Positions 31,740 through 61,860 of a stretch of DNA of 64,000 bases are shown piece after piece. Position numbers and translations under genes: made by a program. Position 1 is the first letter of the stretch, and every line of letters begins with the position of its first letter. The stretch comes from Spirochaetia bacterium (GTDB taxonomy: Bacteria > Spirochaetota > Spirochaetia > UBA9216), in NCBI GenBank assembly GCA_965140585.1, contig OZ223269.1:715542-779541 (forward strand). Direction: 5' to 3'. A model generated the notes under the pieces. The model made no database searches and was not told where the DNA came from. It was given only the letters and a program-made list of their open reading frames with translations.

Positions 31740-31756
31740 TCTAAAAACTCCTGATA

Positions 31757-33947: not shown

Positions 33948-33948
33948 C

Positions 33949-37505: not shown

Positions 37506-37641
37506 AATATTTATTGTAAAGGCAAAAAAGAAATAAAAGCAAGTAAAAACCTTTATCAGTGCAAATTGTCAAATTAAAAATAATAACATCAAAAAATAAC
37601 ATCGTTGACAAAGCGTTAAAGCGCCGGTAGGATTACTGTTA

Positions 37642-39570: not shown

Positions 39571-39614
39571 ATATAAAACAATTTCAGGTTGCCTGATTAA
39601 TATATAGGTATTAG

Positions 39615-39650
39615 AATGTAATTGTTCACGCTAACATCGTGAATGTAATT
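39615..39650 (+). promoter_or_regulatory. Operator-like element: ATGTAATT direct repeats flanking the palindrome TTCACG-N7-CGTGAA, just upstream of the hyuA RBS
   Basis: AATGTAATTGTTCACGCTAACATCGTGAATGTAATT. The RBS GGAGGT is at 39656 and the ATG at 39667. Confidence 0.4.
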
Positions 39651-39666
39651 TTTCGGAGGTAATACA

Positions 39667-42664: not shown

Positions 42665-42790
42665 AAACAGGAGTATACTTAAAAACAGCAATTTTTAATA
42701 GAGAGGAAAATATTCTGAATTATTAACCAAATGTTGGTTTGCGAAAATTCGAAACTTCATTATATAATATCCATATATGAGGAGAGGAAT

Positions 42791-44074: not shown

Positions 44075-44097
44075 AAAACAATAAACCTTTTAACCAG

Positions 44098-46071
44098 CTG
44101 ATTCAGGAAGATTCCTATCTCTCGCCCTATGCCGGAAATCTTCAGAGACGAATAGATCTGTATAACTACAGGAAGCATCACCTGCTTGAAAGTATCGAAG
44201 GTTTCGGCAGGTCATTTGAATATTACGGAGTTCATAAACAGGGCAAAAACACCTGTATACGCGAATGGGCTCCTAACGCTGATGAAATGTATCTGCTATC
44301 GGACCGGACCTCATGGCTCTGTTCGGATGATTACCGGTTCAGCCGTCTGAATGAACACGGGGACTGGGAAATTATACTGCCTGAAGGTGTGCTGGAACAT
44401 GGAGATTATTTCAGGCTTTATCTGAAGTGGAAGGGCGGTGAAGGTGACCGTATTCCTGCATATGCCACAAGGGTTGAGCAGGACAGTCAGACATACATTT
44501 ACTGCTCACGAATGTGGAACCCGGCGCAGGAATATAAATGGTCTGTAAAAGATTTTACCCCATCCAGGGAACCGGTTATTTACGAAGCCCACATTGGAAT
44601 GGCGGCGGAACATTATGGTATAGGGACATTCAATGAATTTCGTGAGAATGTCCTGCCGAGAATAATCTCTGCGGGCTTTAATACCGTTCAGTTTATGGCC
44701 CTCATGGAACATCCTTATTACGGGTCCTTCGGTTATCAGGTTGCTAATTTCTTTGCATTAAGTTCCAAATACGGGACACCCGATGAATTCAAGTTTCTGG
44801 TAGATGAATGTCACCGCAACGGTGTAGCTGTAATTATGGATCTTGTTCACAGCCATGCGGTTAAAAATGAACTTGAGGGCTTAAGTAATTTCGATGGAAC
44901 CCCCTATCTGTATTTTCATGAGGGGCCCCGCGGATATCATCCGGCATGGGATTCAAGATGCTTTGACTATTCCAACAGCAATGTGATTAATTTTCTGCTT
45001 TCAAACTGTGTCTACTGGATTGAAGAATACCATATTGATGGCTACCGTTTTGACGGTGTGACAAGTATGCTCTATCATGATCACGGTCTGGGAGCTTCCT
45101 TTGATAACTATGACAAGTATTTCGGCGCCAATACTGATGAAGATGCCGTATGCTACCTTTCTCTTGCAAATCATCTGATACACAGCATTAAACCTGATTT
45201 TATTACTATTGCCGAAGATATGAGCGGTATGCCGGGAATGGCAAGGGAGGCAGAAGCGGGGGGCTGCGGCTTTGATTACCGCTTGGCAATGGGTATACCT
45301 GATTTCTGGATAAAGTTGCTTAAGGAAAAGAGCGATGAACAGTGGAGTCCCGGCGAAATATGGGGAGTGCTTAATAACCGCAGATTTACTGAAAAGCATA
45401 TAGCATATTCTGAAAGTCATGACCAGGCGCTGGTTGGCGATAAAACCCTTATATTCCGCATGCTTGATTCTGCTATGTATACAGATATGTCTATCGGTAC
45501 CCAATCGTTAACAGTCAGCCGGGGAATTGCCCTTATAAAGATAATAAATATGCTTACATTCTCCCTGGGCGGAGACGGTTATATGTGTTTTATGGGGAAT
45601 GAATTCGGCCATCCGGAATGGATTGATTTTCCAAGGGAGGGAAACGGCTGGAGCTATCATTATGCAAGGCGTCAATGGTCTCTCAGCAGCAACAGGGATT
45701 TGAGGTACGGAAGAATACTGGAATTTACTGGTGATATGCTTCATCTGTGCAGTGATGTTCTTAAGAGCAGTCATCCGGGCCTTCTTTGTCTTCACGAAGA
45801 TGATCAAGTTCTTGCCTATAGCCGGGGAGAGCTGTATTTTATAGTCAATATGAGCGGAACTAAGTCATACCGTGACTACAGAATAAATGTTCCTGCGGGA
45901 AGTTATCATCTTCTTCTTGATTCTGATTCAGAAAAGTACGATGGTAGTGGAAGGATCCCCGGTAATCTTGTACTTAAAGCTGCAGATTACAAAAGCGATT
46001 CCGGTTGGATTACTCCATACCTTCCGACAAGGACAGTCCTTGTCTTCAGAAGGACAAGTCCCGGAGGATAA
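44098..46071 (+). CDS. glgB: 1,4-alpha-glucan branching enzyme (GH13, eukaryote-like GBE type). The 5' end is uncertain
   Basis: Conserved N-terminus YLSPYAGNLQRR...REWAPNADEMYL lies in frame upstream of the first ATG (44287) with no ATG/GTG/TTG after the stop at 44038. The given start is the in-frame CTG (ATT at 44101 is the alternative). GH13 regions (DLVHSH, GYRFDGVTSM, EDMSG) lie downstream. Confidence 0.75.
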   Translation: MIQEDSYLSPYAGNLQRRIDLYNYRKHHLLESIEGFGRSFEYYGVHKQGKNTCIREWAPNADEMYLLSDRTSWLCSDDYRFSRLNEHGDWEIILPEGVLEHGDYFRLYLKWKGGEGDRIPAYATRVEQDSQTYIYCSRMWNPAQEYKWSVKDFTPSREPVIYEAHIGMAAEHYGIGTFNEFRENVLPRIISAGFNTVQFMALMEHPYYGSFGYQVANFFALSSKYGTPDEFKFLVDECHRNGVAVIMDLVHSHAVKNELEGLSNFDGTPYLYFHEGPRGYHPAWDSRCFDYSNSNVINFLLSNCVYWIEEYHIDGYRFDGVTSMLYHDHGLGASFDNYDKYFGANTDEDAVCYLSLANHLIHSIKPDFITIAEDMSGMPGMAREAEAGGCGFDYRLAMGIPDFWIKLLKEKSDEQWSPGEIWGVLNNRRFTEKHIAYSESHDQALVGDKTLIFRMLDSAMYTDMSIGTQSLTVSRGIALIKIINMLTFSLGGDGYMCFMGNEFGHPEWIDFPREGNGWSYHYARRQWSLSSNRDLRYGRILEFTGDMLHLCSDVLKSSHPGLLCLHEDDQVLAYSRGELYFIVNMSGTKSYRDYRINVPAGSYHLLLDSDSEKYDGSGRIPGNLVLKAADYKSDSGWITPYLPTRTVLVFRRTSPGG

Positions 46072-46072
46072 G

Positions 46073-48046
46073 ATGACTCCATTAGACAGAATCAAAAGTA
46101 TAGTAACTGACACCTTTGAAGGACTGACATCCGAATGGCTGATAACTAATTCAAAGGGCGGATTTTCATCATCTACTGCCATAGGCTGCCATACAAGGAA
46201 ATATCACGGACTGCTTGTTACCACTCTTCCGGAAAGAGAGGGGCGCATTCATTTTCTCTCATCCATAGAAGAAAATATTAATAGCTCCAGTCAAATCAGG
46301 CTTGGGAATAATATATACCCCGGAGTGATGTATCCGGAGGGATATGGATATATCAGGGAATTCGGTACTCTTCCGGTTCCGACATGGATTTACAGTTTCG
46401 GTGATATTCTTTTGAAGAAAGAGATACTGATGCGTGATGAAGAGGCTTCAGTATTAATTGTATATACCCTTATGGAAGGTGAGGAAACTCTTCCCGTTGA
46501 ACTGAGGCTGCTTTTTACCTTTCGCGACAGCCACACAACAACCAGAGAAAATATAGATTTAAAAAAAGATATCAGCTTCAGTCAGGATGGGTATAGTATT
46601 CAGCCTTATTCAATGCTGCCTCCGGCCTATGTTTCATTCAGCGGAGACTGGGCGCATTTTGGTGATTTTTACTGGGATCATAATGTCATATATGAAATTG
46701 AACGGGAGAGAGGTCTGGATTTTGAAGAGGATCGCTTTGTTCCCGGACATGAAAAAATCACACTGAATAAGGGGCAGCCATTCGTTGTAAAAGTTTCAGC
46801 AGGTGCAGAAAACAGATCTGACGGAGATACTGTTGAAGAATACGGTAAAATCCTGGCTAAAAAGATAAGTTTTACAGAAAACATTAAAACAGATAAGGAT
46901 CTGCTTTCACTGGGAGCAAATGATTTTCTTGTCAGCAGTTTTTCCGGTCTGAAATCGGTTAATGCCGGTTATCCGTGGTTCGGAGAGTGGGGTCGGGATA
47001 CCATGATAGCGCTTCCGGGGCTTACCTGGTGCAACGGCAATCTTGCCTGGGGGCTTGATGTTTTAAAAGATTATGCTGGTATGATTAAAAACGGCATGCT
47101 GCCTAATACTATCGGTGAGTCACAGGGCTTTACGTCCTACAATTCAATTGATGCAGGTCTGCTTTACTGCAGGGCGGTTATGAAACTCTTAGAGTACGGC
47201 TACGGAAATAAGTCCGGTGAAGTGGATTTTATACGTTCTGTTTTGTTTCCGGCAGTCACGAGCATCGTGGAAGCCTTTTTGAATAATATCGTCCCTGAAA
47301 CAAGACTTGATTCCAGCGGGCTGATATCCACCGGAAATGAAAATACTCAGCTCACCTGGATGGATGCTACTTCCAAAGGGAAGCCTGTAACATCAAGGCA
47401 CGGCTATGCAGTAGAGCTTAATGCAATGTGGTATGACAGCTTTATCCTCATTAAAAAGCTCTGCGCAATGATAAAAACAGACGTACCGGCCTATGCGGAT
47501 GAGTATATCAATAAATTACCTGCAGCTTTTAAAGAGGCTTTCTGGAATGTGGAAGATGGCTTTTTAAGCGATACCTGTGTGAACGGTGCGGCGGATCATA
47601 AGCTGAGGCCTAATCTTCTGTTTGCAACCTCAGCTTCAGATGGTCTTATTGATCGTGATATAAGAAGAGCATCAATAAATATGGTAAAAGAGAAACTTCT
47701 TACACCAATGGGATTAAGAACCTTGTCTCCGGATCATTCCGATTTCCGGGGAGAATATACAGGCGGTTCTGATGAAAGGGATGCAAAATACCACCAGGGA
47801 ACTGTATGGCCCTGGCTGATTGGTGTCATGGTTGAATCAAGTCTTCTATATTGCGAAGATAAGAAAAAAGAATTAAAATTCTGGGGTGATTATCTGGATA
47901 ATCTTCTTGATAATCATTTATACAGGCAGGGTGTGGGTTATATTTCCGAAATCTTCGACGGGGCAATGCCGGAGAACGGAAAGGGATGCTTCGCACAGGC
48001 CTGGAGTACCGGTGAATTATTAAGGGCATACTCTCTGCTGAAATAA
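46073..48046 (+). CDS. Glycogen debranching enzyme (amylo-alpha-1,6-glucosidase, GDE_N + GDE_C six-hairpin type)
   Basis: Start taken at MTPLDRIKS (RBS GGAGGA, 1 nt after the glgB stop); the track ORF begins at 45887. GYPWFGEWGRDTMIALPGL motif. Confidence 0.8.
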   Translation: MTPLDRIKSIVTDTFEGLTSEWLITNSKGGFSSSTAIGCHTRKYHGLLVTTLPEREGRIHFLSSIEENINSSSQIRLGNNIYPGVMYPEGYGYIREFGTLPVPTWIYSFGDILLKKEILMRDEEASVLIVYTLMEGEETLPVELRLLFTFRDSHTTTRENIDLKKDISFSQDGYSIQPYSMLPPAYVSFSGDWAHFGDFYWDHNVIYEIERERGLDFEEDRFVPGHEKITLNKGQPFVVKVSAGAENRSDGDTVEEYGKILAKKISFTENIKTDKDLLSLGANDFLVSSFSGLKSVNAGYPWFGEWGRDTMIALPGLTWCNGNLAWGLDVLKDYAGMIKNGMLPNTIGESQGFTSYNSIDAGLLYCRAVMKLLEYGYGNKSGEVDFIRSVLFPAVTSIVEAFLNNIVPETRLDSSGLISTGNENTQLTWMDATSKGKPVTSRHGYAVELNAMWYDSFILIKKLCAMIKTDVPAYADEYINKLPAAFKEAFWNVEDGFLSDTCVNGAADHKLRPNLLFATSASDGLIDRDIRRASINMVKEKLLTPMGLRTLSPDHSDFRGEYTGGSDERDAKYHQGTVWPWLIGVMVESSLLYCEDKKKELKFWGDYLDNLLDNHLYRQGVGYISEIFDGAMPENGKGCFAQAWSTGELLRAYSLLK

Positions 48047-48074
48047 AGGAGAGTCCTTGCCGCAAGGAGCGGTT

Positions 48075-50519
48075 ATGCAGAATACCTATGGGTTACCTGA
48101 AAAAGGTATAAGTACCGAAGAAATCAAACAGGGATTTCTTGAACATCTTAAATACAGCCTTGCTGTGAAGCTTGAGAACAGCCACAGTACAGACAAGTAT
48201 ATTGCCCTTGCTTTTATGGTAAGGGATCGAATAATTGACCGGTGGTTTGCCTCCAAAAAAACACACGAAGAGCAGAAATTAAAATTCATTAACTATTTCT
48301 CTTTTGAATTCCTTATGGGCAGATCAATGTCAAATAACATGATCAACCTCGGGATAAAGAATGAAGTAGATGCAATGCTTGAGGAAGTAGGTGTTGAATG
48401 GGAGGATATAAGCGCTGCGATGGTTGACAGCGGCCTTGGGAACGGCGGCCTTGGAAGACTTGCCGCCTGCTTTCTTGATTCGCTGGCTACTCTGGAGTTT
48501 CCTGCCTACGGGTACGGGCTGCGGTATAAGTATGGTTTTTTCAAGCAGACCATAGTCAACGGCTACCAGGTTGAGGAGGCTGATGACTGGCTTCGTTTCA
48601 AGAATCCATGGGAGATAAGGCGGAATGATATTCCGGTTACCGTACAGTTCGGCGGCCGTGTAGCGAGAAACAAGAAAGGCCGCTGCTTCTGGGTTGATAC
48701 AAACGATATTATCGGTGTTCCGTATGATACGCCTATAGTCGGTTATGGAGGAAACACTGTTAATACCCTGCGACTCTGGGATTCCAAAAGTTCGGAACAG
48801 TTTGATTTTCAGGCGTTTAATCAGGGGGATTACTATAACACTGTTGATGAAGAGGTTCTTGCTGAAACATTAACACAGGTTCTGTATCCGAACGACGCAA
48901 TTTATTCAGGCAAGGAATTGAGGTTCAAGCAGCAGTTTTTCTTTGTCAGTGCTTCTTTGCAGGATATATTCAGAAGATTCAAACGCCTGAATGAGCCTAT
49001 AGAGAATCTCAGTAATTATATGGCTATTCAGCTCAATGATACCCATCCTGCAATTGCAGTCCCGGAACTTATGCGTATTCTTGTGGATATTGAAGAAATT
49101 GACTGGGATACAGCCTGGGATGTAACAAGAGCATGTCTGGGATATACGAACCACACATTGATGCCTGAAGCCCTTGAAACATGGCCTGTAAGCATGTTTG
49201 AACGCTTTCTGCCGCGTCATCTTGAGATAATCTACCAGATTAACCATTTCTTCCTACAGAAGGTCACAGGGATGTATCCGGGTGATATGGGAAAACTTTC
49301 CCGGCTTTCGCTTATAGAAGAGCATGGTGAAAAAAGGATAAGAATGGCACCTCTTGCAATTCTTGGTTCACATTCTGTAAACGGGGTTGCTGAAATCCAT
49401 TCAAAACTGATTAAAGAACGGCTTGTTCCCGATTTCTATGAAATATTCCCGGAGCGTTTTAATAACAAAACAAATGGGATAACTCAGCGAAGATGGCTTC
49501 GCAAGGCAAATAAACCGCTTTCCGAGCTGATCACCTCGAGTATCGGGGATGGATGGATTACAAATCTCTCGGAACTCAAGGGTCTTAAAAAGCACGTTGA
49601 TGACAGTTCCTTCCTTGAAAAACTAGATCAGGTTAAAAAGCAGGGCAAGATTGATCTTGCAGCGCACTGTAAGAAAGAATTCGGTTTCATAATGGATCCG
49701 GAATCCATTTTTGATATTCATGTTAAACGTATACATGAATATAAAAGACAGCTGCTTAATGTCCTGCATATTATAGTTTTATACAACAGGATAAGATCCG
49801 GGGAGAGAATATACCCCAGAACTTTTATATTCAGCGGTAAAGCTGCTCCGGGCTATGATATGGCCAAAATGATAATTAAGCTTATAAATAATGTAAGCCA
49901 TGTTATTAACGGCGATCGAAAAGTAAGTGAGATGCTGAAGGTCTTTTTCCTTCCCAATTACAGCGTTTCTCTTGCTGAGAAGATTTTTCCGGCTGCAGAG
50001 ATTTCTGAACAGATATCCACCGCCGGCACAGAGGCTTCAGGTACGAGCAATATGAAATTCATGCTTAACGGAGCTCTTACAATGGGAACGCTGGACGGAG
50101 CGAATATTGAGATTGTTGAGGAAGCCGGTGAAGAAAATATGTTCATCTTCGGAATGAAAACAGAAGAAGTCACTGAAAAAAGAAACGGTTATAAACCGGT
50201 AGACTATCTTCTCAATTACCCGGAGATAGCTGAAATCTTCAAACTTATGAACAGCGGCTTTTTCAATATCAGCGAACCGGGGATTTTTGATCAGCTTATA
50301 AAGAATCTTATGGATTATGATTACTATATGAATCTTGCTGATCTTCCGGCATACATCGATGCACAGAAACTTGTTGAAACCAGATACAGGGACAGGGAGT
50401 CCTGGCTGAAATCTTCACTGATTAACATTGCAAGCGCAGGGAAATTTTCTTCAGACAGGACTATAAATGAGTATGCTAAAGACATATGGGACCTGAAGCC
50501 CTGCCATGTTAAAAAATAA
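48075..50519 (+). CDS. glgP: Glycogen/maltodextrin phosphorylase
   Basis: Start taken at MQNTYG (RBS AAGGAG); the track ORF starts at a TTG at 48057. GLGNGGLGRLAACFLDS and the PLP-lysine region are present. Confidence 0.9.
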   Translation: MQNTYGLPEKGISTEEIKQGFLEHLKYSLAVKLENSHSTDKYIALAFMVRDRIIDRWFASKKTHEEQKLKFINYFSFEFLMGRSMSNNMINLGIKNEVDAMLEEVGVEWEDISAAMVDSGLGNGGLGRLAACFLDSLATLEFPAYGYGLRYKYGFFKQTIVNGYQVEEADDWLRFKNPWEIRRNDIPVTVQFGGRVARNKKGRCFWVDTNDIIGVPYDTPIVGYGGNTVNTLRLWDSKSSEQFDFQAFNQGDYYNTVDEEVLAETLTQVLYPNDAIYSGKELRFKQQFFFVSASLQDIFRRFKRLNEPIENLSNYMAIQLNDTHPAIAVPELMRILVDIEEIDWDTAWDVTRACLGYTNHTLMPEALETWPVSMFERFLPRHLEIIYQINHFFLQKVTGMYPGDMGKLSRLSLIEEHGEKRIRMAPLAILGSHSVNGVAEIHSKLIKERLVPDFYEIFPERFNNKTNGITQRRWLRKANKPLSELITSSIGDGWITNLSELKGLKKHVDDSSFLEKLDQVKKQGKIDLAAHCKKEFGFIMDPESIFDIHVKRIHEYKRQLLNVLHIIVLYNRIRSGERIYPRTFIFSGKAAPGYDMAKMIIKLINNVSHVINGDRKVSEMLKVFFLPNYSVSLAEKIFPAAEISEQISTAGTEASGTSNMKFMLNGALTMGTLDGANIEIVEEAGEENMFIFGMKTEEVTEKRNGYKPVDYLLNYPEIAEIFKLMNSGFFNISEPGIFDQLIKNLMDYDYYMNLADLPAYIDAQKLVETRYRDRESWLKSSLINIASAGKFSSDRTINEYAKDIWDLKPCHVKK

Positions 50520-52134
50520 CTGTGTTCTAACCAGTGTAAAAAACTGGAAGTTTGAAATATCCGATATAGACGGAATCCTGAACCCTGTTAAAGATTTTAA
50601 CAGGGTAACAGGTTCTTCAGAACTGATACTGCGCCTTGTATTTGAACAGCCTCCTGATTCGGATGAGTTTTATATACACACAGATCTCCCTGAAACTCAA
50701 TGGGGCAGGATTAAATTTAAAAACAATGAAGATTCCTGTATCTTCACGCTTTCCATAGATCTCCCGAAAGGCGGCTTTTTCAGTTTCCGCTTTTTTATGG
50801 TACAGGGTCATGATGCCTTCTGGGAGCCCGGCGGCTATCACCGTCTGCTTGTTGATCCTGAGTTTATGCATAACCTGCGAATGTATACGCTTATTCCTAC
50901 TGTATCAGGTACTATAGCGGACTGGATTGAGAAACTGGATGAAATCTCTGATCTTGGTTTTAATGCGGTTCATATACTTCCGTTCACAGCCATGGGGCCT
51001 TCTCAAAGTCCTTACGCTGCAGCGGATCTTTTTAAACTCGATTCGAGGTACAGTGGTGATGAAACTGATTTTGAACTGTTTGCTCAAAAGGCTGCGGATA
51101 AAGGCATCAGGATATGCTTTGACATAGTATTAAACCATTTGAGTGATAAAAATGAACTAACAAGAACCAATGGACACTGGTTTATTTCCGACAAGGATCG
51201 TAATGACGGACTGAAAAGAGCCGGCTGCTGGCATATGAACAGCTGGATTTCCTGGGAAGACCTGGTGCTGATAAACTATGACCATCCTGCAGAAAAAATC
51301 AGACATGATATCTATGAATATATGCTTTCATATGTGCTTTTCTGGGTTAAGAAGGTTGAGAAATGCGGTGCAATAATCCGGCTTGATAATCTGCATTCAT
51401 CCAATATGGACTTTATAAAGTGGTTTATTCACCGCTTACGGAAGTTCGCACCTGGAATTATTATTCTTTCTGAATTTTTTGGTTCAGAAGAAGATCTTAT
51501 TAAAGGTGTCTCATCACTTGGTCTAAATCTTCTGACGGCAAATACCTGGGAACAGCCCTTTGCTCCGAGACTTCAGCAATATCTTCAGTTTATCCATGAC
51601 AGCAAGGATACTCTCCGATACATGATTCAGCCTACTTCACATGACACCGGCGCTGCTGCACAGCTTTTCGGAACAGCAATATCTTCAATACCAAGGTATT
51701 TCTGCTGTGCTCTTATGGGTACCGGGCAGTCCGGAGCCGTTCAGGGCTTTGAGGCGGGATATCCAAGAAAGGTAGAGTTTATCGGTTATCAGGGAAAGGT
51801 CGATTTAGGCGGTAACCTTGATTTAACAGATTTTATAAGATCTGTTAACAGCATTCTTTCAGCTGAGGCGCTGCTGAGAAAGGGCGGAAATATCAAGTTT
51901 ATTGAAACCGGTAACGACAGCCTGATAGTCTGTGCGCGTACAGACAGTAAGAGCGGCAGAAAACTGCTTCTTGCCGCAAATTTTAACACTAATGCAGGCG
52001 AAAGTTTTTCAGCAGGACATATACCTGATTTTAAGTTAATATATGCTCTGGATGCACATACCGAATATGTAAATGAGCATCTTATTGTTAATTTTGAAAA
52101 ATGCGGGGTCGCTGCATTACTTATAAAAGAATGA
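50506..52134 (+). CDS. GH13-family protein, GlgE-like (alpha-amylase superfamily; possible maltosyltransferase/glucanotransferase)
   Basis: 542 aa. GH13 region I FDIVLNH. Region II IIRLDNLH. N-terminal ~130-aa extra domain. Start overlaps the glgP stop by 14 nt. Confidence 0.5.
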   Translation: MLKNNCVLTSVKNWKFEISDIDGILNPVKDFNRVTGSSELILRLVFEQPPDSDEFYIHTDLPETQWGRIKFKNNEDSCIFTLSIDLPKGGFFSFRFFMVQGHDAFWEPGGYHRLLVDPEFMHNLRMYTLIPTVSGTIADWIEKLDEISDLGFNAVHILPFTAMGPSQSPYAAADLFKLDSRYSGDETDFELFAQKAADKGIRICFDIVLNHLSDKNELTRTNGHWFISDKDRNDGLKRAGCWHMNSWISWEDLVLINYDHPAEKIRHDIYEYMLSYVLFWVKKVEKCGAIIRLDNLHSSNMDFIKWFIHRLRKFAPGIIILSEFFGSEEDLIKGVSSLGLNLLTANTWEQPFAPRLQQYLQFIHDSKDTLRYMIQPTSHDTGAAAQLFGTAISSIPRYFCCALMGTGQSGAVQGFEAGYPRKVEFIGYQGKVDLGGNLDLTDFIRSVNSILSAEALLRKGGNIKFIETGNDSLIVCARTDSKSGRKLLLAANFNTNAGESFSAGHIPDFKLIYALDAHTEYVNEHLIVNFEKCGVAALLIKE

Positions 52135-52148
52135 TACCGGAGCTGTAA

Positions 52149-53621
52149 GTGAAAGAAGTAAAGAAAATACTCATGGTTTCAAGTGAAGCTGTACCATTTG
52201 CAAAAACAGGCGGTCTTGCAGAGGTAGTTACAGAGCTCTCACTTCAGTTAAAAAGACTGGGGTATGATGTAAGAATAATAATGCCGAGATATTATCATAT
52301 TGATCGTTCAGAACTTAAAAAGCATGATGAAGCCCTGGGAATATGGCTTGGACATGGTGAAGAATGGACAGCCGTATATGAAACAGTTCTGCCTGATTCT
52401 GAAGTTCCGGTTTATTTTCTAGATCATGAGCGTTTTTATGGACGGGACGGTATATATGGCCATAGACCGGACGAAGGCTTTAAGGACAATGCAGCCCGTT
52501 TTGCTTTGCTGTCCAGGGGGGCTTTTCAGCTTTGCCGAATGCTGCACTGGATTCCTGATGTCCTGCATTGTCATGACTGGCCGTCAGCGCCGGCATGTTA
52601 TCTGCTGAAAAAAGAAGAACAGGCAACAGAGTTTTCTGACACATCAAGTGTTCTGACCATTCACAATCTCGGCTATCAGGGTATTTTTGATCTGAATGAT
52701 GTTGTTTACCTTCAAAAAGAGACTGATCGACTGAATCTTTCGGCGCTTGAGTTCTCGGGCGCACTGAACTTTCTGAAATCAGGAATAATAACCGCTGATA
52801 AAATTACAACAGTGTCTCCGAATTACGCCGAAGAAATTAAACGTCCTGAACACGGTTTTAATATGGACGGACTGCTCAATTACAGGCACGAGGACCTTCA
52901 CGGAATTCTTAACGGTATTGATTACGACGTCTGGTCACCTGAAAAGGACAAGTACATCGAGCCTGATAATTTCAGTGCTGATTCACTTAAGAATAAAGCT
53001 TCTGTCAAAAAACTCCTGCAGAAGGAAATTGGCCTGAAGGTTGATCCGAAGGTGCCGCTGGTTGGAATGATAAGCCGACTGGTAGAGCAGAAGGGCTTTA
53101 AGGAACTATGCGCTCCGAATTATGGATCTCTGTATTCGATTTGCAGCAGTATGAACGTACAGTTTGTGCTTCTCGGCAGCGGAGATCGCTGGTGTGAAGA
53201 TGAACTCAACAGTCTGGCTCAGGGGCTTCCTAATTTATCTGTTTATATCGGGTTTAATAACCGTCTGGCACATCTGATCGAGGCCGGTTCTGATTTTTTC
53301 CTTATGCCCAGCATTTATGAACCCTGCGGCCTGAACCAGATTTACTCGCTTTCCTACGGAACGCTGCCGATAGTTCGCTCTACAGGCGGTTTAGCCGATA
53401 CTGTTGAAAATTATAATCAGGAAACCGGCAGCGGTACAGGCTTCGTCTTTGATGATATAAACCCGGAGGTTCTGTATAATGTAATTCACTGGGTGGTCGA
53501 TACATGGGAGAACAGACGGCCTCATATTACAAAAATGCGGAAAGCTGCTATGAAAAAAAGATTCGACTGGGTGAAATCCGCCGAAGCTTATATCGAAATA
53601 TATGAGAGTATGAAGGATTAA
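52149..53621 (+). CDS. glgA: Glycogen synthase (ADP-glucose type)
   Basis: VSSEAVPFAKTGGLAEVV (KTGGL motif). GTG start at 52149 (the ATG alternative is at 52173). Confidence 0.9.
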   Translation: MKEVKKILMVSSEAVPFAKTGGLAEVVTELSLQLKRLGYDVRIIMPRYYHIDRSELKKHDEALGIWLGHGEEWTAVYETVLPDSEVPVYFLDHERFYGRDGIYGHRPDEGFKDNAARFALLSRGAFQLCRMLHWIPDVLHCHDWPSAPACYLLKKEEQATEFSDTSSVLTIHNLGYQGIFDLNDVVYLQKETDRLNLSALEFSGALNFLKSGIITADKITTVSPNYAEEIKRPEHGFNMDGLLNYRHEDLHGILNGIDYDVWSPEKDKYIEPDNFSADSLKNKASVKKLLQKEIGLKVDPKVPLVGMISRLVEQKGFKELCAPNYGSLYSICSSMNVQFVLLGSGDRWCEDELNSLAQGLPNLSVYIGFNNRLAHLIEAGSDFFLMPSIYEPCGLNQIYSLSYGTLPIVRSTGGLADTVENYNQETGSGTGFVFDDINPEVLYNVIHWVVDTWENRRPHITKMRKAAMKKRFDWVKSAEAYIEIYESMKD

Positions 53622-53624: not shown

Positions 53625-54590
53625 TCAGTCTTCCTGATCATCAATCTGCAGTATTTCTTCATCATCAAGGTAAAGTCCATGCTGCTTTGGAATGGCTCCG
53701 GAACTTATTTTCTGAATCAGCCGTAGAAGTTCCCTGCTGAAAGGGCTGTCAGGCGATTCAAGTACTGCAGGTTTTCGTGAAAATATTGACCGTCCGACAC
53801 TTTGATCATCAGGCAGGCTGCCGATATCTTCAACTTCAATTCCAATATTTTTAACAGTTATTTCTCTCAACTTTGAACCAAGAGCACTGTTGCCTGCATC
53901 AGAAACCCGGTTAAGTACTATCCAGGGGAAAAAGTCATGCAGTTTACTTTCTGCAACTTCACCGGAATGCCTGGAATATCCGTATAATTCATTTATTAAA
54001 TCGGCACTGAAAGATCTACCCGATCCTTCAAGCTTCTGTGAAACAAAGTCCTGTATAATTTTTCTTTCATCACTTTTCGCCTTGAAACTTCTGAAAAGCA
54101 GTCTGAAAACAGCGGTTTTTATAAAGGAGTAGGCATTCAGGATTGATGTAGTTTCAGGCGTGGTAATAATAATTCCGGGACTTGAAATAAGAAAAAAATC
54201 TATAGTGTTGTAGGCAGTGCCGGCACCAAGATCGAGCAGTACATAATCTGCTTCAATTTCAAGAATCTGTTTTATTATCCTTTGTTTAATAAAAAAGGGC
54301 AGATTTCCAGTCCCGGGATACAGCATGTCGCCTGGAATCATAAAAAGATTATCGTTGATTGCCGGTACCATAATATCTTCAATATTCGATTCCTGTTTAT
54401 TGATGAAGGCTCCCATACCGTTATGACGGTTTCGTACGCCAAGACAGGTGTGAAGATTACTTCCACCTAAATCGAGATCAATTAACACAGTTTTAAATCC
54501 TAAGTTGGACAGGTGTACTCCGGCCGATCCGGTGATTACTGTTTTTCCGACGCCGCCTTTTCCGCTTGCTATTGGTAAAATTACTGCCAT
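53625..54590 (-). CDS. MinD/ParA-family P-loop ATPase (FlhG/FleN-like)
   Basis: Deviant Walker A SGKGGVGKT. Start taken at MAVILPIASGKGG; the track ORF extends to 54662. Confidence 0.65.
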   Translation of the reverse strand: MAVILPIASGKGGVGKTVITGSAGVHLSNLGFKTVLIDLDLGGSNLHTCLGVRNRHNGMGAFINKQESNIEDIMVPAINDNLFMIPGDMLYPGTGNLPFFIKQRIIKQILEIEADYVLLDLGAGTAYNTIDFFLISSPGIIITTPETTSILNAYSFIKTAVFRLLFRSFKAKSDERKIIQDFVSQKLEGSGRSFSADLINELYGYSRHSGEVAESKLHDFFPWIVLNRVSDAGNSALGSKLREITVKNIGIEVEDIGSLPDDQSVGRSIFSRKPAVLESPDSPFSRELLRLIQKISSGAIPKQHGLYLDDEEILQIDDQED

Positions 54591-54668
54591 ACTTTCAGAA
54601 TAGCGGAGGCCCGTGTATATTGCAAACAAAAAATTGTATTTAAAATTAAAATAAGATATCATTAGCTG

Positions 54669-55328
54669 ATGAAAGTAACTGCATTCAGCGGAAGCCCGCG
54701 TAAAAATTCAAACAGCAGAAGAATATTGGATTCTTTTTTAAAAGGAGCAGAGACTGCAGGCGCAGAGATTAGTCTGTATGAAACTGATAAACTTGATATA
54801 AAGCCCTGTACGGGCTGCCTTGTGTGTAATGTAAAGAAGAAATGCATTATTAAAAATGACGAATGGCAAGCCCTAAGCAGTGAGATACTGGCTTCGGACA
54901 TCCTTGTTTTTGCAACACCGGTTTATTTTCATCATATGACAGCTTCACTGAAAAAAATACTTGATCGGTTCAGATCATTTATCACGGTTCAAATTACAAG
55001 GGAAGGTATTCTTCATACTCCCAACATAGCCTGGTCGAAGAAGTTTCACCTTATAACTGCTATGGGCAGCAGCTCGGATGAAGATGCGGAGCCTCTTGTA
55101 GATCTTTTTAAATTCATAACTTCAGATTTTGGTGAAGGAAACAGTTTTACCTGTCAAAACTCAACCAGACTTGCTGTTTCAGGTCAGCTTGATATGAATG
55201 CTTCAAGACTGAAGGCTCTGTATCGAATGATGAAGATTCCCGAAGATCTTGCCCAGCCAGATTATGAACGCAATCTTCAAATTCTGAAAGAGGCTGAAGA
55301 AACCGGTTATAAACTTGCCATGGAGTAG
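54669..55328 (+). CDS. NADPH-dependent FMN reductase-fold protein with compact Cys motif (iron-sulfur flavoprotein, Isf-like)
   Basis: 219 aa. Flavodoxin-like FSGSPRKNSNS and CTGCLVCNVKKKC cysteine cluster. Confidence 0.6.
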   Translation: MKVTAFSGSPRKNSNSRRILDSFLKGAETAGAEISLYETDKLDIKPCTGCLVCNVKKKCIIKNDEWQALSSEILASDILVFATPVYFHHMTASLKKILDRFRSFITVQITREGILHTPNIAWSKKFHLITAMGSSSDEDAEPLVDLFKFITSDFGEGNSFTCQNSTRLAVSGQLDMNASRLKALYRMMKIPEDLAQPDYERNLQILKEAEETGYKLAME

Positions 55329-55331: not shown

Positions 55332-57551
55332 ATGTTTGATATAGAAAAATCACTCGAACAGCAGATCCTGTCATTTAATCGCTCAAGACCGGTGGTGATC
55401 TTCACTGAATCTGTTGATATCAGGGTGCTCGAAGCCGTATCGTACCTATGCCGTTATATAAAACCTGTTCTGCTGGTATCTGAAGACCGAATTCGCTCTC
55501 TATATGAGAACGAGGCGGCTGATATTGACAGGAGCCGTGTAGAATTCACAATTTCAGAATCACGATTTATAAATATTGCAGCTGAACATGGTATTCTGGA
55601 TGAATTCTGTGTTTTTTACAGCAGCCAGCTTGAATCTGAAGGAATCAAACCAAAGCTTGAGGAGGTAAAAGCTTCAGTTTCGGATCCGTGCCTGTTCGGA
55701 ATTCTATGTGTTAAATTCGGATATGCGGATATGGTCGTGGGCGGAATAACGCATGAACCAATATCTTTTTTCAGACCGATGCTGAAGTATCTGAAAAAAA
55801 GGAAAGTTCAGTGTGAAACAGGTATTTTTGTTTTATCAGATGAGCATTCTGAAAAGGTTTTTCCAAAGAATATAATTGTATTTGGGGATGTCGGTGTTAA
55901 TGCGACCATGGATGAAGAAACCCTTGCAAATATAGCCGTTGATATCTGCACTATTACAAGAAATATTATCCCTGAAGAGGTTCTGTCCAATATAAACGGA
56001 GCAATTGTTTCATATTCCAATCACGGCTCGGATGAAGGCCCTTCACCGAAACTTGTTAATAAGGCTTCCTCCCTTGTTCCCGGACTGCTCAAAAAGTACA
56101 TCAGTATGGATCGGCGTTACCTGACAATAAACATTGAAGGTGAGGTCAAGGTCAATGTTGCCCTGTCTGAAAGGTCTGCAATGTATTACAGCAAGCCTGG
56201 AGAAAAAGACTGGAAGGGAGGAACAAATGTAATAATATGTCCAAACCTTGATATGGGAAATATGCTGTACCATCTTTATGCTACACGTTTCCCCGATGCC
56301 AAAAAATTTACCATAATTTCAGGCATAGGGTTTTCTGCTGTTGATCTTGCAAAGGACTGCAGCGCTGATGACATCCGTCTTGCTATTAAAGCAACAATGC
56401 TTAATCTTTTTCAGAAAGAAAATTGGGATAAGACTCCGCATGATCATTTTTTTCCGATGTATCGAATTCTGTCTATTAATCCCGGGTCAACTTCAACAAA
56501 GGTTAGTCTTTATGAGGGAGAATACCGGATTCTCTCAGAAGAACTGCAGCATAAGCCTGAAGAATTGAAAGAGTTTGAGAATAAACCTGTAACAGCGCAG
56601 TTTGAATACCGCAAGAGGATGGTTGAAAAATTTCTTACGGACAATGGCTACTACATTAAGGATCTTGATGCTGTGTCGGCCAGGGGCGGCCTGCTCAAGC
56701 CAATTCCACATGGAACCTATGCCGTAAATGAACTTATGCTTAAGCATTTAAAAGCTGGTATAAGCGGGGAGCATGCATCAAATCTTGGGGGAATAATCGC
56801 TGATTCTCTTACAAAAGGCAGCGCTGTCCCCTCATTTATTACTGACCCCGTGGTTGTTGATGAGGCTGATGACAGGGTTAAGATAACCGGAATAAAAAGC
56901 ATTAAAAGAGAAATTATCAGTCATGCCTTGAATCAGATAGCCTCGGCCAGAAAGTATGCGTATGAGAACGAGACTTTCTATGAAAACATAAATGTCATTG
57001 TCTGCCATATGGGCGGCGGTATTTCCATCGGAGCGCATCACAGGGGGCGATATGTCGATGTAAACAATGCTCTGAACGGTGAAGGCCCCTTTTCACCTCA
57101 GAGATCCGGGACTCTACCGGCCGGCGCTTTGATAGATCTCTGTTTTTCCGGCACATTAAGCGAAAAAGAGATAAGACGTCTGAATGTCGGAGGCGGAGGT
57201 TTATATGACCTGCTCGGAACTACAGATCTGAGAGAAATCATTGAACAGGCAAAGACCGATACCTATGCTGAAACAGTACTTGAAGCCCTCGTATATCAGA
57301 CTGCAAAGACGATAACCTCCTTACTTCCGGCTTTTAACGGGGAGGCGGTAGAGCAGGTAATTCTTACCGGAGGAATGGTTAGGAGTGATTTGCTGGTTTC
57401 CAGGATAGAGGGTCTCATCATTCAGCTTAACTGCGGAATAACAGTTTACCCCGGTGAAAACGAAATGGACGCTCTTGCAGCCGGTGCGGTAAGAGTACTC
57501 CAGGGGAAGGAGCAGATAAAACAATACAGTGCTGAACTTTTTACTAATTAA
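55332..57551 (+). CDS. Fused phosphate butyryl/acetyl-transferase (PTA_PTB) and butyrate-kinase-family protein
   Basis: 739 aa. N-terminal ~370 aa PTA_PTB-like (GDVGVNAT..., ICPNLDMGNMLYH). C-terminal ~370 aa begins MYRILSINPGSTSTKVSLYEGEY (butyrate kinase signature) and has CHMGGGISIGAHHRGR. Confidence 0.75.
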   Translation: MFDIEKSLEQQILSFNRSRPVVIFTESVDIRVLEAVSYLCRYIKPVLLVSEDRIRSLYENEAADIDRSRVEFTISESRFINIAAEHGILDEFCVFYSSQLESEGIKPKLEEVKASVSDPCLFGILCVKFGYADMVVGGITHEPISFFRPMLKYLKKRKVQCETGIFVLSDEHSEKVFPKNIIVFGDVGVNATMDEETLANIAVDICTITRNIIPEEVLSNINGAIVSYSNHGSDEGPSPKLVNKASSLVPGLLKKYISMDRRYLTINIEGEVKVNVALSERSAMYYSKPGEKDWKGGTNVIICPNLDMGNMLYHLYATRFPDAKKFTIISGIGFSAVDLAKDCSADDIRLAIKATMLNLFQKENWDKTPHDHFFPMYRILSINPGSTSTKVSLYEGEYRILSEELQHKPEELKEFENKPVTAQFEYRKRMVEKFLTDNGYYIKDLDAVSARGGLLKPIPHGTYAVNELMLKHLKAGISGEHASNLGGIIADSLTKGSAVPSFITDPVVVDEADDRVKITGIKSIKREIISHALNQIASARKYAYENETFYENINVIVCHMGGGISIGAHHRGRYVDVNNALNGEGPFSPQRSGTLPAGALIDLCFSGTLSEKEIRRLNVGGGGLYDLLGTTDLREIIEQAKTDTYAETVLEALVYQTAKTITSLLPAFNGEAVEQVILTGGMVRSDLLVSRIEGLIIQLNCGITVYPGENEMDALAAGAVRVLQGKEQIKQYSAELFTN

Positions 57552-57598: not shown

Positions 57599-58243
57599 AT
57601 GAAAGAATACAAGTACTACTTTTTTGATGTCGACGGCACCCTTCTCGATACTATAGAGCTTATTTACCAGACTTTTCACTATACATGTCTAAAATACGGT
57701 AATTATGAAATTGACCGTAAAGATGTTACAAAGCATGTAGGTATCCCCATTATGCAGCAGATGAAAATGTATTTTAAAGATTATTCTGATGAACAGCTGA
57801 ATGGAATTCTCGATTCTCACAGGGAATATCAGAAACAGATTTACAGGGAATATCTTAAGCTGTTTCCGGATACCATAGATATTCTGAAAAAACTGAAAGA
57901 TAAAAAGAAAAAAACTGCTCTGGTTACTTCAAGATCTCTTGATTCTCTGAACAGATATCTGCAGCACTTCAAGCTGGAAGATACCTTTGATCTGGTAGTT
58001 ACACCGGAATCGACCGAAAAGCACAAACCGCATCCTGAACCGGTATTGTTTGCACTTGATTATTTTAATGCCGGAAAGGAAGATGCTGTCTTTATTGGTG
58101 ACGCAGAGTTTGATATTAAAAGCGGCTTCACTGCCGGAGTAGATACTGCATTTGCATCATGGGGTCCGAACAATCCCGATGAACTTAAAACCCGTCCTGT
58201 GTATATACTTAATAATCTCAAGGAGCTTATTGCTGATATTTAA
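57599..58243 (+). CDS. HAD-IA family hydrolase (phosphatase)
   Basis: 214 aa. FFDVDGTLLDT motif I. Later VTSRS and GDAEFD motifs. Confidence 0.75.
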   Translation: MKEYKYYFFDVDGTLLDTIELIYQTFHYTCLKYGNYEIDRKDVTKHVGIPIMQQMKMYFKDYSDEQLNGILDSHREYQKQIYREYLKLFPDTIDILKKLKDKKKKTALVTSRSLDSLNRYLQHFKLEDTFDLVVTPESTEKHKPHPEPVLFALDYFNAGKEDAVFIGDAEFDIKSGFTAGVDTAFASWGPNNPDELKTRPVYILNNLKELIADI

Positions 58244-59205
58244 TGAATCAAAAATTGAATTTGCCTGCAAACCTATCTGTAAAACAGGATGGCTGGGGAG
58301 TCTCTCCATGTTCCGATTGTGATAATACCCCCTGTTGTAAAAATCTTCCGCTGGATATATTAAAACTGCAGAATTATTCCGATATGGTAAACCTTCAGTT
58401 AAGTTCAGTATTCAGGGATATATATCTGGTATTGAAAAAAAGCGGTGAATGGAACCTGTATCTACGGCGTAACTGTTTATTTGTTGATGCAGACAGCGGC
58501 AAGTGCCTTATTCATGCAATGCCGAATCAAAGTCTTATCTGTAAATCATATGATGCCCATAGATGCTGGTATAAAGAAGCATTCAAGGCACACAGCAGTA
58601 CTCTGATTAAATTTACTGGTGGAATGCTTGACGATTTTGAACATTCTTTAACCTGTGCTAACGGGAAATTTGACTGTGAATCCTATGATTTTGATACTTT
58701 GAGATCTACAATAACTGATGATTTTAATAAGCCGGTCAGTCAGAGACGTAATAGTAAAAGAGATTACAGACAGTACACTCTCTCTTATAAAAAAGCCTAT
58801 GACCCGGATTTTCTCTTTCTTCCGCCCTATATAAAACCTTCGAGTATTAATCACCTTGAACTTGCAGAATTCCGGCTTGGATTCCCCGGTGTCTATCTGG
58901 CTGTAGCAGATAACTGCTGGGCTTATTTGATAAAAACTTCTTTAGACCTTAAACGGCTGCAAATTATCCGGAAGAACCTTCCCTCAGTTGCTCCACAGGA
59001 TTTCAGTTACAGTTTTAAAAGTTTCCAAAGAAATAGTCAGCCCTTTTCTGAAATAGGGGAAAAATTCGTTGTATTGCGAAAGGATAATCTGCCACTTTTA
59101 AAAAGTATGGTTAAGACGGATGCTGCCGGCAGAATAAAACGATTGCCGACAACTTATGAAATATATTTCGCACTCAAAAAAGACCGCCCTGAAAGGGCAG
59201 CCTGA
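58243..59205 (+). CDS. Protein of unknown function with N-terminal CxxCxxxxCC metal-chelating motif (YkgJ/FliB-like)
   Basis: 320 aa with CSDCDNTPCCKN near the N-terminus. Start overlaps the HAD stop (TAATG). Its stop abuts the convergent MCP gene with zero gap. Confidence 0.4.
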   Translation: MNQKLNLPANLSVKQDGWGVSPCSDCDNTPCCKNLPLDILKLQNYSDMVNLQLSSVFRDIYLVLKKSGEWNLYLRRNCLFVDADSGKCLIHAMPNQSLICKSYDAHRCWYKEAFKAHSSTLIKFTGGMLDDFEHSLTCANGKFDCESYDFDTLRSTITDDFNKPVSQRRNSKRDYRQYTLSYKKAYDPDFLFLPPYIKPSSINHLELAEFRLGFPGVYLAVADNCWAYLIKTSLDLKRLQIIRKNLPSVAPQDFSYSFKSFQRNSQPFSEIGEKFVVLRKDNLPLLKSMVKTDAAGRIKRLPTTYEIYFALKKDRPERAA

Positions 59206-60045
59206 CTAAAGTTTTTTATCTAAAAGTTTATCCAGTGATTCCTGAGACGCATGCAGGGTCTGTGAAATTGAATTAGCGTCCTTAAGCAGGGCAAACACCT
59301 TTTCAAGTGATTTCAATCCATCAGTCATCGCATCCGTCTGTTCTGTGACTGCTGCGTTGATTTCCGCAAGTCTGTATCCGGAATCAGAGAGACTTTTTTC
59401 GTTCTGCTGAAAGGTTTCACTGGTATTTGCAAGTTCATCACGTGAGCTGTTTAACAGCAGTACGAGTTTATTAAAATTTTCCTGAATTTTGTTAATGCCG
59501 CTGTTAAACTCATTAATAGTGCCGGATATTGTTGTAGCAAAATCCTGGGTTTGCTCGGAAAGCTTTCTGATTTCCTTTGCAATAATATGAAAACCACGTC
59601 CTGCATTTCCGGCACGTGCAGCTTCAATTGATGCATTTATTGCAAGAATATTTGTCTGCTGGGCAACATCTTCAATTGCCTCAGTAATTTCCCGAACCTT
59701 GTAGGATTGCTGTTCAAGAGAATTGAAAAGTTTAAAAATCTTTTCAGATTCAGTGGTCGCTGTGGAAATTTCACTCACATTCTTTTGAATGTTCCTGTTT
59801 ATAAGCGTTGAGGACTCGATAATGCTGTCCATTGCATTATTAATGCTCTTGGTATTGGCTGAAGTGCTTTGAGATGTTGCACGGACTTCTTCAAAGCTGG
59901 TAACAACGGTTTCAAGGGCATTATGGATAGCTGATATTTTTCTGGCTATTATATTCATCGCATTCTGAGTAATGCGGGAAAGTATAATACCCTTATTGTA
60001 TCCGACTGTCAGCAGAGTCAGAGTTTTGCGAATAAATTTATTCAT
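59206..60045 (-). CDS. Soluble methyl-accepting chemotaxis protein (signalling domain only)
   Basis: 279 aa. Highly conserved MCP tip [38 protein letters not shown]. No TM segment. Confidence 0.85.
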
Positions 60046-60062
60046 ATTCCAATCAGCCTGCC

Positions 60063-60836
60063 TTAGTTGTATAAATCGTCAATTATATCGATGCCGCAGC
60101 TTAGACCGGAAAACCAGTCCAGAAACTTATTGACATTGTCACCCGTATAAATGGCACCATGCTGAGGAGCTATCATACTGATGTTCATGCCACTAAGTTT
60201 GCTGATCCATTTCTTGATTACTTTATTCGAGCTCATATAGCGTTTGTGGAAACCTTCACAAATTTTAATATGCTCATTAAAATCCTCAACAAAAAGATAC
60301 TGATTGCCGGGTTTAAATACCGCGGCTCCGATGTCTCCAGTGAAAAGAATTCCTGATGTTTCATCAAAAAAAGAATAACATCCGGTTGAGTGGAGAAAAT
60401 GTGAAGGAACCATTACAAGTTCCCTGTTCTGTGATATTTTCAGCCTTCCACCCAGATTTTCAATAGATGAAATCCTGCTATTATCAACTATTCCGAAATG
60501 CGGAATAAATCTGAGCCACAGGCCTGAAATGTATATTTTCGCATTTGTAACGCCCAGCCACAGTGCAATACCGCTGGAAACATCAGGATCCTGATGCGAG
60601 TAGAAAATATTATCAATGTGATCGAGATCTATATACTGACTTACCAGGGCTACTACTCTTGAAAAAAGGTGAATCCCACCCGGATCTACGAGAGTTCCCC
60701 TTCCATTGTTAATTATTAGGTACTGATTGGTCTGTACTACACCAACTTCTTCTTCCTCATCGGCGCCAAGCCAGATAAACTGATGGCCTTCTGTCTGGAA
60801 TAAAATCTTTCCGTTTATATCTTCAGAATTAATCAA
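60063..60836 (-). CDS. ODP-type di-iron MBL-fold protein (flavodiiron-protein-like core without a flavodoxin domain)
   Basis: 257 aa. FDP-like ligand motifs [29 protein letters not shown] and IAPQHGAIY. Immediately upstream of the soluble MCP in the same operon. Confidence 0.6.
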
Positions 60837-60939
60837 TTATTTCCCCGTTATATAAAAATTTAGTATTATAATATAATTAATATATGGAAATGGCAAATAA
60901 CTTTCATATTATTAAATTATTATAATATAAGGAGTTTTA

Positions 60940-61449
60940 ATGAAGCGGATTTTTTTTATAAGTTTATTGGTGCTGTCCGCCGTTTTGGTTTTCGGGCAGG
61001 AAGTTACAGTAACCATCAGTAATGATACGGGCTATGATATAACCAGTCTTTATTTTTCACCTACCGACTTTGATGACTGGGGAGATGATTTTCTTGAGGG
61101 AGATATCCTTTATTACGGTGATGAAATTACAATTTCACTCGACATGTATGATGCTGAAGCTGTTTTGTATGATCTGCAGGCTGTTGATATCGATGACGAT
61201 TATTATTCGAAGTATGAAATCGATATTTCGGCTGATGATGTAATCTATCTTACAATTGATGATTACGAAGGATTCGATGATTATGATGACAGTTATGATG
61301 ATTACTCAAGTTATGATGACGGTTATAATGACGGATACAGCGAAGGTTATAAGCAGGGATATACTGACGCATTCAGGGATGCATATCTCGAAGGATTTAA
61401 AGCCGGCCAGGAATTAAATACCGATACTGCACCTGACAGGTGGAGATGA
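60940..61449 (+). CDS. Secreted acidic Asp/Tyr-rich low-complexity protein
   Basis: 169 aa with signal peptide. DDYEGFDDYDDSYDDYSSYDDGYNDGYSEGYKQGY repeats. Confidence 0.5.
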   Translation: MKRIFFISLLVLSAVLVFGQEVTVTISNDTGYDITSLYFSPTDFDDWGDDFLEGDILYYGDEITISLDMYDAEAVLYDLQAVDIDDDYYSKYEIDISADDVIYLTIDDYEGFDDYDDSYDDYSSYDDGYNDGYSEGYKQGYTDAFRDAYLEGFKAGQELNTDTAPDRWR

Positions 61450-61480
61450 TTTTTAAGTATCAATTAACAATTTATAAATT

Positions 61481-61509
61481 AAAAAAGGCCGGATATACCG
61501 GCCTTTTTT
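61481..61509. terminator. Bidirectional terminator (A6-GGCCGG-ATATA-CCGGCC-T7)
   Basis: Sits between the convergent genes 60940..61449 (+) and 61510..61860 (-). Confidence 0.7.
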
Positions 61510-61860
61510 TCAGCAGAAGGAGCTTATCACCGTTTCTTTGAAAAGATTAAGTTCTTCAAATATGAATGATTCAAACTTCCCGGCTTTTACATAATCACCA
61601 ATTGAAGAATGTTTTTCGTATTCCGAAAGAATAGAACTTATACGGGTTCCGCCGTTCTTTTCTGTAAAAGATCTGATTTCGGACACCGCCCTGCAGATAG
61701 TCTTATTTTCTCGCGTTATTATAGACTGCTCCAGATTAAAAAGCAGATTATGGTATCTGTCAAGAAAATAGCCTATCCTGCTGCCGCCATAATTGTCTTC
61801 ACTGCTGTAACCAAGGAACTTTTTAAAATCCAGTACAGCTTCATCAAATATCAGTTCCAT
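61510..61860 (-). CDS. Hypothetical protein downstream of gcvPB
   Basis: 116 aa ORF 18 nt after the gcvPB stop, on the same strand. No recognisable motif. Confidence 0.4.
   Translation of the reverse strand: MELIFDEAVLDFKKFLGYSSEDNYGGSRIGYFLDRYHNLLFNLEQSIITRENKTICRAVSEIRSFTEKNGGTRISSILSEYEKHSSIGDYVKAGKFESFIFEELNLFKETVISSFC

Follow-up and report, generated by a model that had tools for sequence, protein, structure and literature searches.

In the oral spirochete Treponema denticola, ODP (short for oxygen-binding di-iron protein) is the oxygen sensor for chemotaxis (PMC7666581). It is genetically coupled to TDE2496, a methyl-accepting chemotaxis protein (MCP) that has neither membrane nor sensing modules and acts as a modulator of CheA; deletion of ODP alters the ordering of CheA in the chemoreceptor arrays, and cryo-electron tomography could not locate ODP within them (PMC7666581). 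ODP binds both iron and oxygen, and its interaction with the receptor depends on conformation (PMC6978683). The operons that join ODP and MCP genes come in two gene orders, and ODP may also be fused to signalling domains (PMC7319448). Here we analyze a pair of adjacent genes of this type, one encoding an ODP and the other an MCP, in a stretch of 64,000 nucleotides (nt) from an uncultured Spirochaetia bacterium (assembly GCA_965140585.1, contig OZ223269.1, positions 715,542 to 779,541), hereafter the window.

The pair very probably constitutes a two-gene operon orthologous to the ODP-receptor modules of T. denticola and Thermotoga maritima and working by the mechanism set out below. The module has already been described: the family is covered by a model in Pfam and by four crystal entries, its genetics has been published, and the window pair is an added copy. 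A sequence-only reading of this stretch had proposed a sensor of 257 amino acids (aa) with the metal-ligand motifs of flavodiiron proteins but no flavodoxin domain, encoded directly upstream of an MCP with a canonical signalling tip and no membrane segment, as in the Treponema and Thermotoga systems. The list of open reading frames (ORFs) contains both genes as claimed, on the same (minus) strand, with the MCP gene directly downstream after a gap of 17 nt, and the other testable parts of that proposal were borne out by the searches and alignments that follow.

The upstream gene encodes an ODP

The 257-aa protein matches the Pfam model of the ODP family (PF19583) with an E-value of 7.2e-72 and 241.8 bits (cut-off, 27.2 bits) and covers this profile in full (positions 1 to 194 of 194). 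The generic Lactamase_B model is also matched (E = 4.7e-18; 66 bits). The two matches overlap at residues 32 to 227 and are the sole Pfam domains of the protein, which is therefore without a flavodoxin domain; the same Pfam scan gave no rubredoxin module either. In sequence searches of the PDB, the top matches were the ODP of T. denticola (6qnm/6r9n; E = 1.9e-100), followed by that of T. maritima (6qrq/6qwo; E = 1.1e-93), to which the window protein is 56% and 54% identical, respectively. Flavodiiron proteins trailed the ODPs in this search, at about 1e-5.

The structure that AlphaFold2 predicted with confidence from 40 homologues (pLDDT, 90.4; pTM, 0.89) gave the same identification. Compared with the PDB by Foldseek, it had ODP chains as all ten of its best matches (TM-score, 0.84 to 0.91; root-mean-square deviation [rmsd], 1.6 to 2.5 Å). 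The best of them is 6qrq (TM-score, 0.91; rmsd, 1.6 Å), and 6r9n, entitled "Peroxy diiron species of chemotaxis sensor ODP," is also among the ten. Below the ODPs came flavodiiron cores with TM-scores of about 0.7 and true beta-lactamases with about 0.55 and an rmsd of 6 to 7 Å. The sequence GGGGA sits 7 nt 5' of the TTG start codon. The alignment places the start of the homologues at the same position, so that 257 aa is the correct length.

The four motifs quoted in the sequence-only reading were all found: H81-Q-D83-P-D85, P144-S-H146-F-L-H149, F165-T-G-D168-I-G and P224-Q-H226-G. A profile alignment to Escherichia coli NorV and to the flavodiiron protein TM0755 of T. maritima served to map the predicted ligands (Table 1). 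By this mapping, six of the seven ligand positions of flavodiiron proteins are retained in ODP, and the seventh is occupied by a valine: V86 aligns with the flavodiiron histidine whose replacement gave the crystal entries H90A, H90N and H90D. H146, three residues ahead of H149, may take over the role of this seventh ligand. The metal-coordinating residues of ODP are in all cases predicted ones, assigned by alignment and not from coordinates.

The check suggested by the sequence-only reading, an alignment with characterized ODPs and flavodiiron proteins, showed that the di-iron ligand positions align and are invariant. H81, D83, D85, V86, H146, H149, D168 and H226 are identical in the ODPs of T. 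denticola, T. maritima and the window. Among 81 ODPs (the window protein and those of 80 related loci described below), the six ligand columns, V86 and H146 are invariant, as are H18, H113, H197 and D250. More broadly, the whole first shell is identical to that of the T. denticola and T. maritima proteins, as are many residues of the second shell.

The downstream gene encodes a receptor without sensor or membrane domains

The 279-aa product of the downstream gene matches the MCPsignal model of Pfam (PF00015; E = 1.8e-31; 109.8 bits; cut-off, 34.6 bits), with no further domain above threshold in the same database. No membrane segment was found in it, since the maximal Kyte-Doolittle mean over 19 residues is 0.83, compared with about 1.6 for a membrane helix, and none of 73 related partner MCPs exceeds 1.6. 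Its matches in the PDB included the cytoplasmic domains of T. maritima Tm1143 (E = 2e-20) and E. coli Tsr (1e-12) and the soluble receptor TM14 (3g67; 1e-11). A hairpin tip of 34 residues, with its end near G146-G149, aligns residue for residue with these cytoplasmic-domain matches, and the local alignment to Tm1143 requires gaps of 7 residues in each arm. Single-sequence AlphaFold2 prediction gave a low-confidence model of the MCP (pLDDT, 56), in which all of the structure is helix, broken at residues 143 to 147, the form to be expected of a helical hairpin. As judged from its sequence, the MCP is cytoplasmic and a signalling hairpin only, without a membrane or sensor domain.

Across 74 paired MCPs, the invariant residues are T131, L134, N137, I140, E141, A142, G146, F152, A156, E158, L162 and T166. 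The same set points to candidate methylation pairs. E52 and E53 are conserved in 72 and 69 of the 74, respectively, and E235-Q/E236 has the glutamate in 73 of them. The two pairs lie roughly facing each other on the two arms of the hairpin, in a near-consensus context, and are candidate sites for adaptation by CheR and CheB.

The conserved unit is the gene pair

A database search with an E-value of 1e-10 or lower returned 4,624 ODP homologues, the best of which is 100% identical to the window protein and the next 77%. When one genome per species was scanned, at least 567 loci were found to encode an ODP relative, and the best 80 of these were kept (L001 to L080). They span Spirochaetota, Aquificota, Nitrospirota and Thermotogota. 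The closest relative locus belongs to a metagenome-assembled genome (MAG) of an uncultured "Spirochaetia bacterium" (species representative CAXXYH01, contig CAXXYH010000003.1), with an ODP 97% identical to that of the window. Of the organisms with a name, Candidatus Thalassospirochaeta sargassi, of the family Spirochaetaceae, is the nearest (75% identity).

An MCP gene adjoins the ODP gene in all of these 80 best loci and lies downstream in 79 of them, which is the pairing of the Treponema and Thermotoga systems. In 73 loci, it is an ORF of about 280 to 295 aa, homologous to the window MCP and on the same strand, that starts between -151 and +53 nt relative to the end of the ODP gene, with most gaps between -4 and +23 nt. 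The other seven loci were checked by tblastn: three MCPs are cut by the end of the contig, one is masked by a long spurious ORF, one is frameshifted and one is located 235 nt downstream. In a Nitrospirae locus (L079), a longer MCP is encoded upstream of ODP, an arrangement that PMC7319448 gives as the second of its two gene orders.

In the 80 loci, no flanking gene is conserved past the one to three nearest relatives, which leaves the two genes of the ODP-MCP pair as the conserved unit. A linked third gene was sought and rejected: the convergent gene for a 320-aa protein, the acidic secreted protein gene and the FMN reductase gene are syntenic only in the one to three closest relatives.

Proposed mechanism and its alternatives

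By analogy with the described systems, ODP would bind two Fe(II) at H81, D83, D85, H149, D168 and H226, probably together with H146. The di-ferrous site would bind O2 reversibly, giving a stable mu-peroxo di-ferric adduct and no reduction, and the apo, Fe(II) and peroxo states of the protein would differ in conformation and oligomerization. The partner receptor, inserted in a membrane-associated chemoreceptor array, would pass the state of ODP on to the level of phosphorylated CheA, which would then alter swimming reversals. If true, the pair would provide iron and oxygen taxis to an anaerobic or microaerophilic spirochete.

Several points weigh against this proposal. The binding of iron and oxygen and the coupling to CheA are presumed for the window pair from homology. 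For the ligand list, the peroxo adduct and the destabilization of phospho-CheA, the mechanism draws on the 2019 work of Muok et al. (PNAS 116:14955), which reportedly described them, on secondary citations and on the titles of PDB entries. No cheA, cheW, cheY, cheR or cheB gene is found within the 64-kb window, and a downstream che pathway is presumed to be present because the organism is a spirochete. Position 147 of the MCP tip, usually a conserved glutamate, is an asparagine in the window protein. Finally, the window MCP is only about 34 to 35% identical to the partner MCPs of Treponema and 20 to 26% identical to those of other phyla, so that the details of receptor coupling could differ. 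By comparison, the ODPs of Aquificota, Nitrospirota and Thermotogota are still 53 to 57% identical to that of the window. A conserved ODP with a divergent MCP could result either from a very strong constraint on ODP or from lateral spread of the pair.

Across the 74 ODP-coupled MCPs, position 147 is freely variable (S, E, K, T or N), while position 153, which follows the invariant phenylalanine and is usually an alanine, is an arginine in 58 (the window MCP has a histidine). A G-Y-N-K motif near the N terminus (residues 15 to 18 of the window MCP) is common to the spirochete partner MCPs and missing in those of Aquificota, Nitrospirota and Thermotogota that were examined. Given this variable position 147 and Arg153 despite an invariant core, the spirochete motif, and the identity of 53% or more for ODP against 20 to 26% for the MCP, the ODP-coupled receptors might form a distinct subclass with their own ODP docking and array entry, a suggestion that we regard as rather unlikely. 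If it were true, with G-Y-N-K and the altered tip as determinants of ODP contact and array insertion, it would show how a separate sensor signals to a sensor-less receptor, a question left by the cryo-electron tomography work on T. denticola (PMC7666581).

Among the readings that depart from an oxygen and iron sensor, the one that survives best, and which we still hold to be improbable, accepts a true ODP-MCP module and gives it another input (NO, H2O2, Zn/Mn or redox state) or a chemosensory-like output other than motility. T. maritima ODP was crystallized with zinc (6qwo), showing that the site accepts other metals, and NO binds di-iron sites of the flavodiiron type; such a reading would also fit the lack of che genes nearby and the fall of the MCP to 20 to 35% identity while ODP remains at or above 53%. 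The first-shell and many second-shell residues shared with the T. denticola and T. maritima proteins argue against this reading, as does the conservation of the residues at the tip through which CheA and CheW are contacted, and there is no sequence sign of an altered specificity.

Less credible again, and in our view very improbable, is a stand-alone core of a flavodiiron-type O2/NO reductase, used for detoxification together with a separate flavoprotein such as the FMN reductase encoded at 54669-55328, in which case the adjacency to the MCP would be meaningless. The fold and six of the seven ligand positions are indeed common to flavodiiron proteins and ODP. The NCBIfam search nevertheless matched only NorV flavorubredoxin equivalog models, far below threshold (31 and 27 bits, where the cut-offs are 635 and 711), and the flavodiiron motif H-x-E-x-D-H is replaced invariantly by H-Q-D-P-D-V. 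The FMN_red family gene lies 4.7 kb from the pair, but on the opposite strand, with four genes between and synteny in three close relatives only; there is no flavodoxin domain in ODP and no flavodoxin partner in the operon, whereas all 80 loci have an MCP partner. Characterized ODPs are also said, in the same work of Muok et al., to stabilize the peroxo species rather than turn it over, and the title of 6r9n points the same way.

There is next to no chance that the protein is a conventional hydrolase of the metallo-beta-lactamase fold (glyoxalase II-like, phosphodiesterase or lactamase) with an incidental MCP neighbor: the Lactamase_B match and the class B beta-lactamases among the fold matches would allow it, but the protein lacks the H-x-H-x-D-H motif of hydrolases and has H-Q-D-P-D-V instead, the ODP model scores 242 bits against 66 for the generic one, the beta-lactamases superpose much less well than 6qrq, and the MCP pairing is conserved. 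Loss of the di-iron ligands and a hydrolase of the conventional beta-lactamase type were the two outcomes that the sequence-only reading had named as contrary to it; the ligands are kept, and the protein is not such a hydrolase. We thus retain the orthologous ODP-receptor module as the interpretation of the pair.

Operon layout

The features of the locus are collected in Table 1. The 17-nt spacer between the two genes is consistent with their cotranscription. The putative promoter and the putative terminator of the pair are consensus matches. The former lies in a 103-nt, AT-rich, divergent intergenic region 5' of ODP and is weak evidence, as the AT-rich region has 11 such sites compared with 7.1 in shuffled sequence. 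The terminator-like hairpin falls within the 3' end of the gene at 58243-59205; this gene converges on the MCP gene, and the two stop codons abut with no spacer. For a leader RNA upstream of ODP, Rfam gave only subthreshold hits, which lie elsewhere, at a terminator at 61436-61563. Inverted repeats, sought as an operator in the AT-rich region, are short and imperfect.

Table 1. Coordinates of the ODP-MCP locus in the window and alignment of the predicted ODP ligands with flavodiiron proteins
Feature	Position	Strand	Basis or remark
MCP gene	59206..60045	-	ORF list; 279 aa, ATG start
ODP gene	60063..60836	-	Six-frame ORF list; 257 aa, TTG start
Spacer, ODP stop to MCP start	60046..60062	-	17 nt
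Promoter-like site TTGCCA, 17 nt, TATTAT	60868..60896	-	10/12 consensus matches
Terminator-like hairpin, 10 pairs (6 G-C) + TTTTTT tail	59181..59203	-	Starts 3 nt past MCP stop
ODP H81			Aligns with flavodiiron H79
ODP D83			Aligns with flavodiiron E81
ODP D85			Aligns with flavodiiron D83
ODP H149			Aligns with flavodiiron H147 (H of LHWPD)
ODP D168			Aligns with flavodiiron D166
ODP H226			Aligns with flavodiiron H227

Other genes in the window

Two genes flank the pair. The convergent gene at 58243-59205 (+) encodes a 320-aa cysteine-rich protein with a subthreshold match to CxxCxxCC (zinc/iron-chelating). Only L001, the relative of the same species, has this gene, which is therefore not part of the ODP module. 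On the other side, the divergent gene at 60940-61449 (+) encodes a 169-aa protein with an N terminus resembling a signal peptide and a C-terminal half of low complexity, extremely rich in aspartate and tyrosine. No family matches this protein significantly, and its conservation is limited to L001 and L002.

A large cluster, mostly on the minus strand (23245-41070), resembles the selenium-linked ygeW-ygeY-ssnA-xdh region of purine/urate catabolism. It encodes a YgeW knotted carbamoyltransferase (683 bits), an 8-oxoguanine deaminase-like amidohydrolase, a YgeY hydrolase and SsnA, as well as a pyridoxal phosphate enzyme, a PyrD/PreA-like dehydrogenase and a D-hydantoinase. Two separate sets of the xanthine dehydrogenase family are also present, with Mo, 2Fe-2S and FAD subunits. 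A 642-aa protein encoded at 37642-39570 has no Pfam match.

A contiguous cluster for glycogen metabolism at 42731-53621 (+) comprises a glgC-like nucleotidyltransferase, an alpha-amylase-family enzyme, a debranching enzyme (GDE), a glycogen phosphorylase, a second amylase-family enzyme and a glycogen/starch synthase. As listed, two of the ORFs, 44287-46071 and 45887-48046, have 185 nt in common, so that one of the start codons was probably mischosen. Next to this cluster, 53625-54662 (-) encodes a 345-aa P-loop ATPase of the MinD/ParA type without minC or minE beside it. Its best model, an archaeal-type MinD, is subthreshold, and the protein could be an FlhG-like or another positioning ATPase.

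Further, the ORF at 55332-57551 (+) encodes 739 aa in which a phosphotransacetylase/phosphotransbutyrylase (residues 17 to 349) is fused to a full butyrate kinase (residues 376 to 733; 435 bits). The two enzymes are normally encoded by two genes, and the fusion is kept in L001, L002 and L004. The 986-aa product of 18731-21691 (+) combines a weak match to a response-regulator receiver with PPDK_N, the ATP-binding domain of phosphoenolpyruvate-utilizing enzymes, which is an unusual architecture for signalling or phosphotransfer. The 902-aa product of 8011-10719 (-) consists of a CHASE2 sensor fused to the catalytic domain of adenylate/guanylate cyclases.

Comparison with described systems

The closest described system is that of T. 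denticola, also a member of Spirochaetota, in which ODP (TDE2498; 6QNM, 6R9N) and TDE2496 form the same combination of a separate sensor coupled to an MCP without membrane or sensor modules (PMC7666581). The 56% identity of the two ODPs extends over the full length, their folds superpose with TM-scores of 0.85 to 0.86, and the ligands are the same. The organisms differ, the window coming from an uncultured Spirochaetia MAG and not from an oral Treponema, and so do the partner MCPs, with about 34 to 35% identity. The T. maritima system (ODP, 6QRQ and 6QWO; TM14, 3G67) belongs to another phylum and to a thermophile. Its ODP is nearly as similar (54% identity; TM-score, 0.91), and the window MCP matches TM14. 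A Thermotogota partner MCP, that of an Athalassotoga locus (L077), is 26% identical to the window MCP and lacks G-Y-N-K. The window pair thus places the intact ODP-MCP module of an oral pathogen and of a thermophile also in a free-living, uncultured member of Spirochaetia of marine type.

Flavodiiron proteins (NorV, TM0755 and FprA of Moorella) share with ODP the metallo-beta-lactamase-like di-iron domain and six ligand positions (H, D/E, D, H, D and H). They differ in sequence (about 18 to 20% identity to the window ODP), and the window protein lacks their flavodoxin and rubredoxin domains, has a valine in place of the fourth-motif histidine, and carries the additional invariant H146; in function, ODP would be a sensor and not a reductase. 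This matters for annotation, since sources use "MBL fold metallo-hydrolase," "FprA family flavoprotein" or "flavorubredoxin" where the gene should be named ODP.

In HemAT (globin-MCP), Aer (PAS-FAD) and DcrH (hemerythrin-MCP), oxygen or redox input also reaches an MCP hairpin and CheA, as in the ODP-MCP module. The sensor of these three receptors is a domain fused to the receptor itself and uses heme, FAD or the di-iron site of hemerythrin. What sets ODP apart from them all is that it is a separate protein with the metallo-beta-lactamase fold and that its gene lies upstream of one for a sensor-less receptor.

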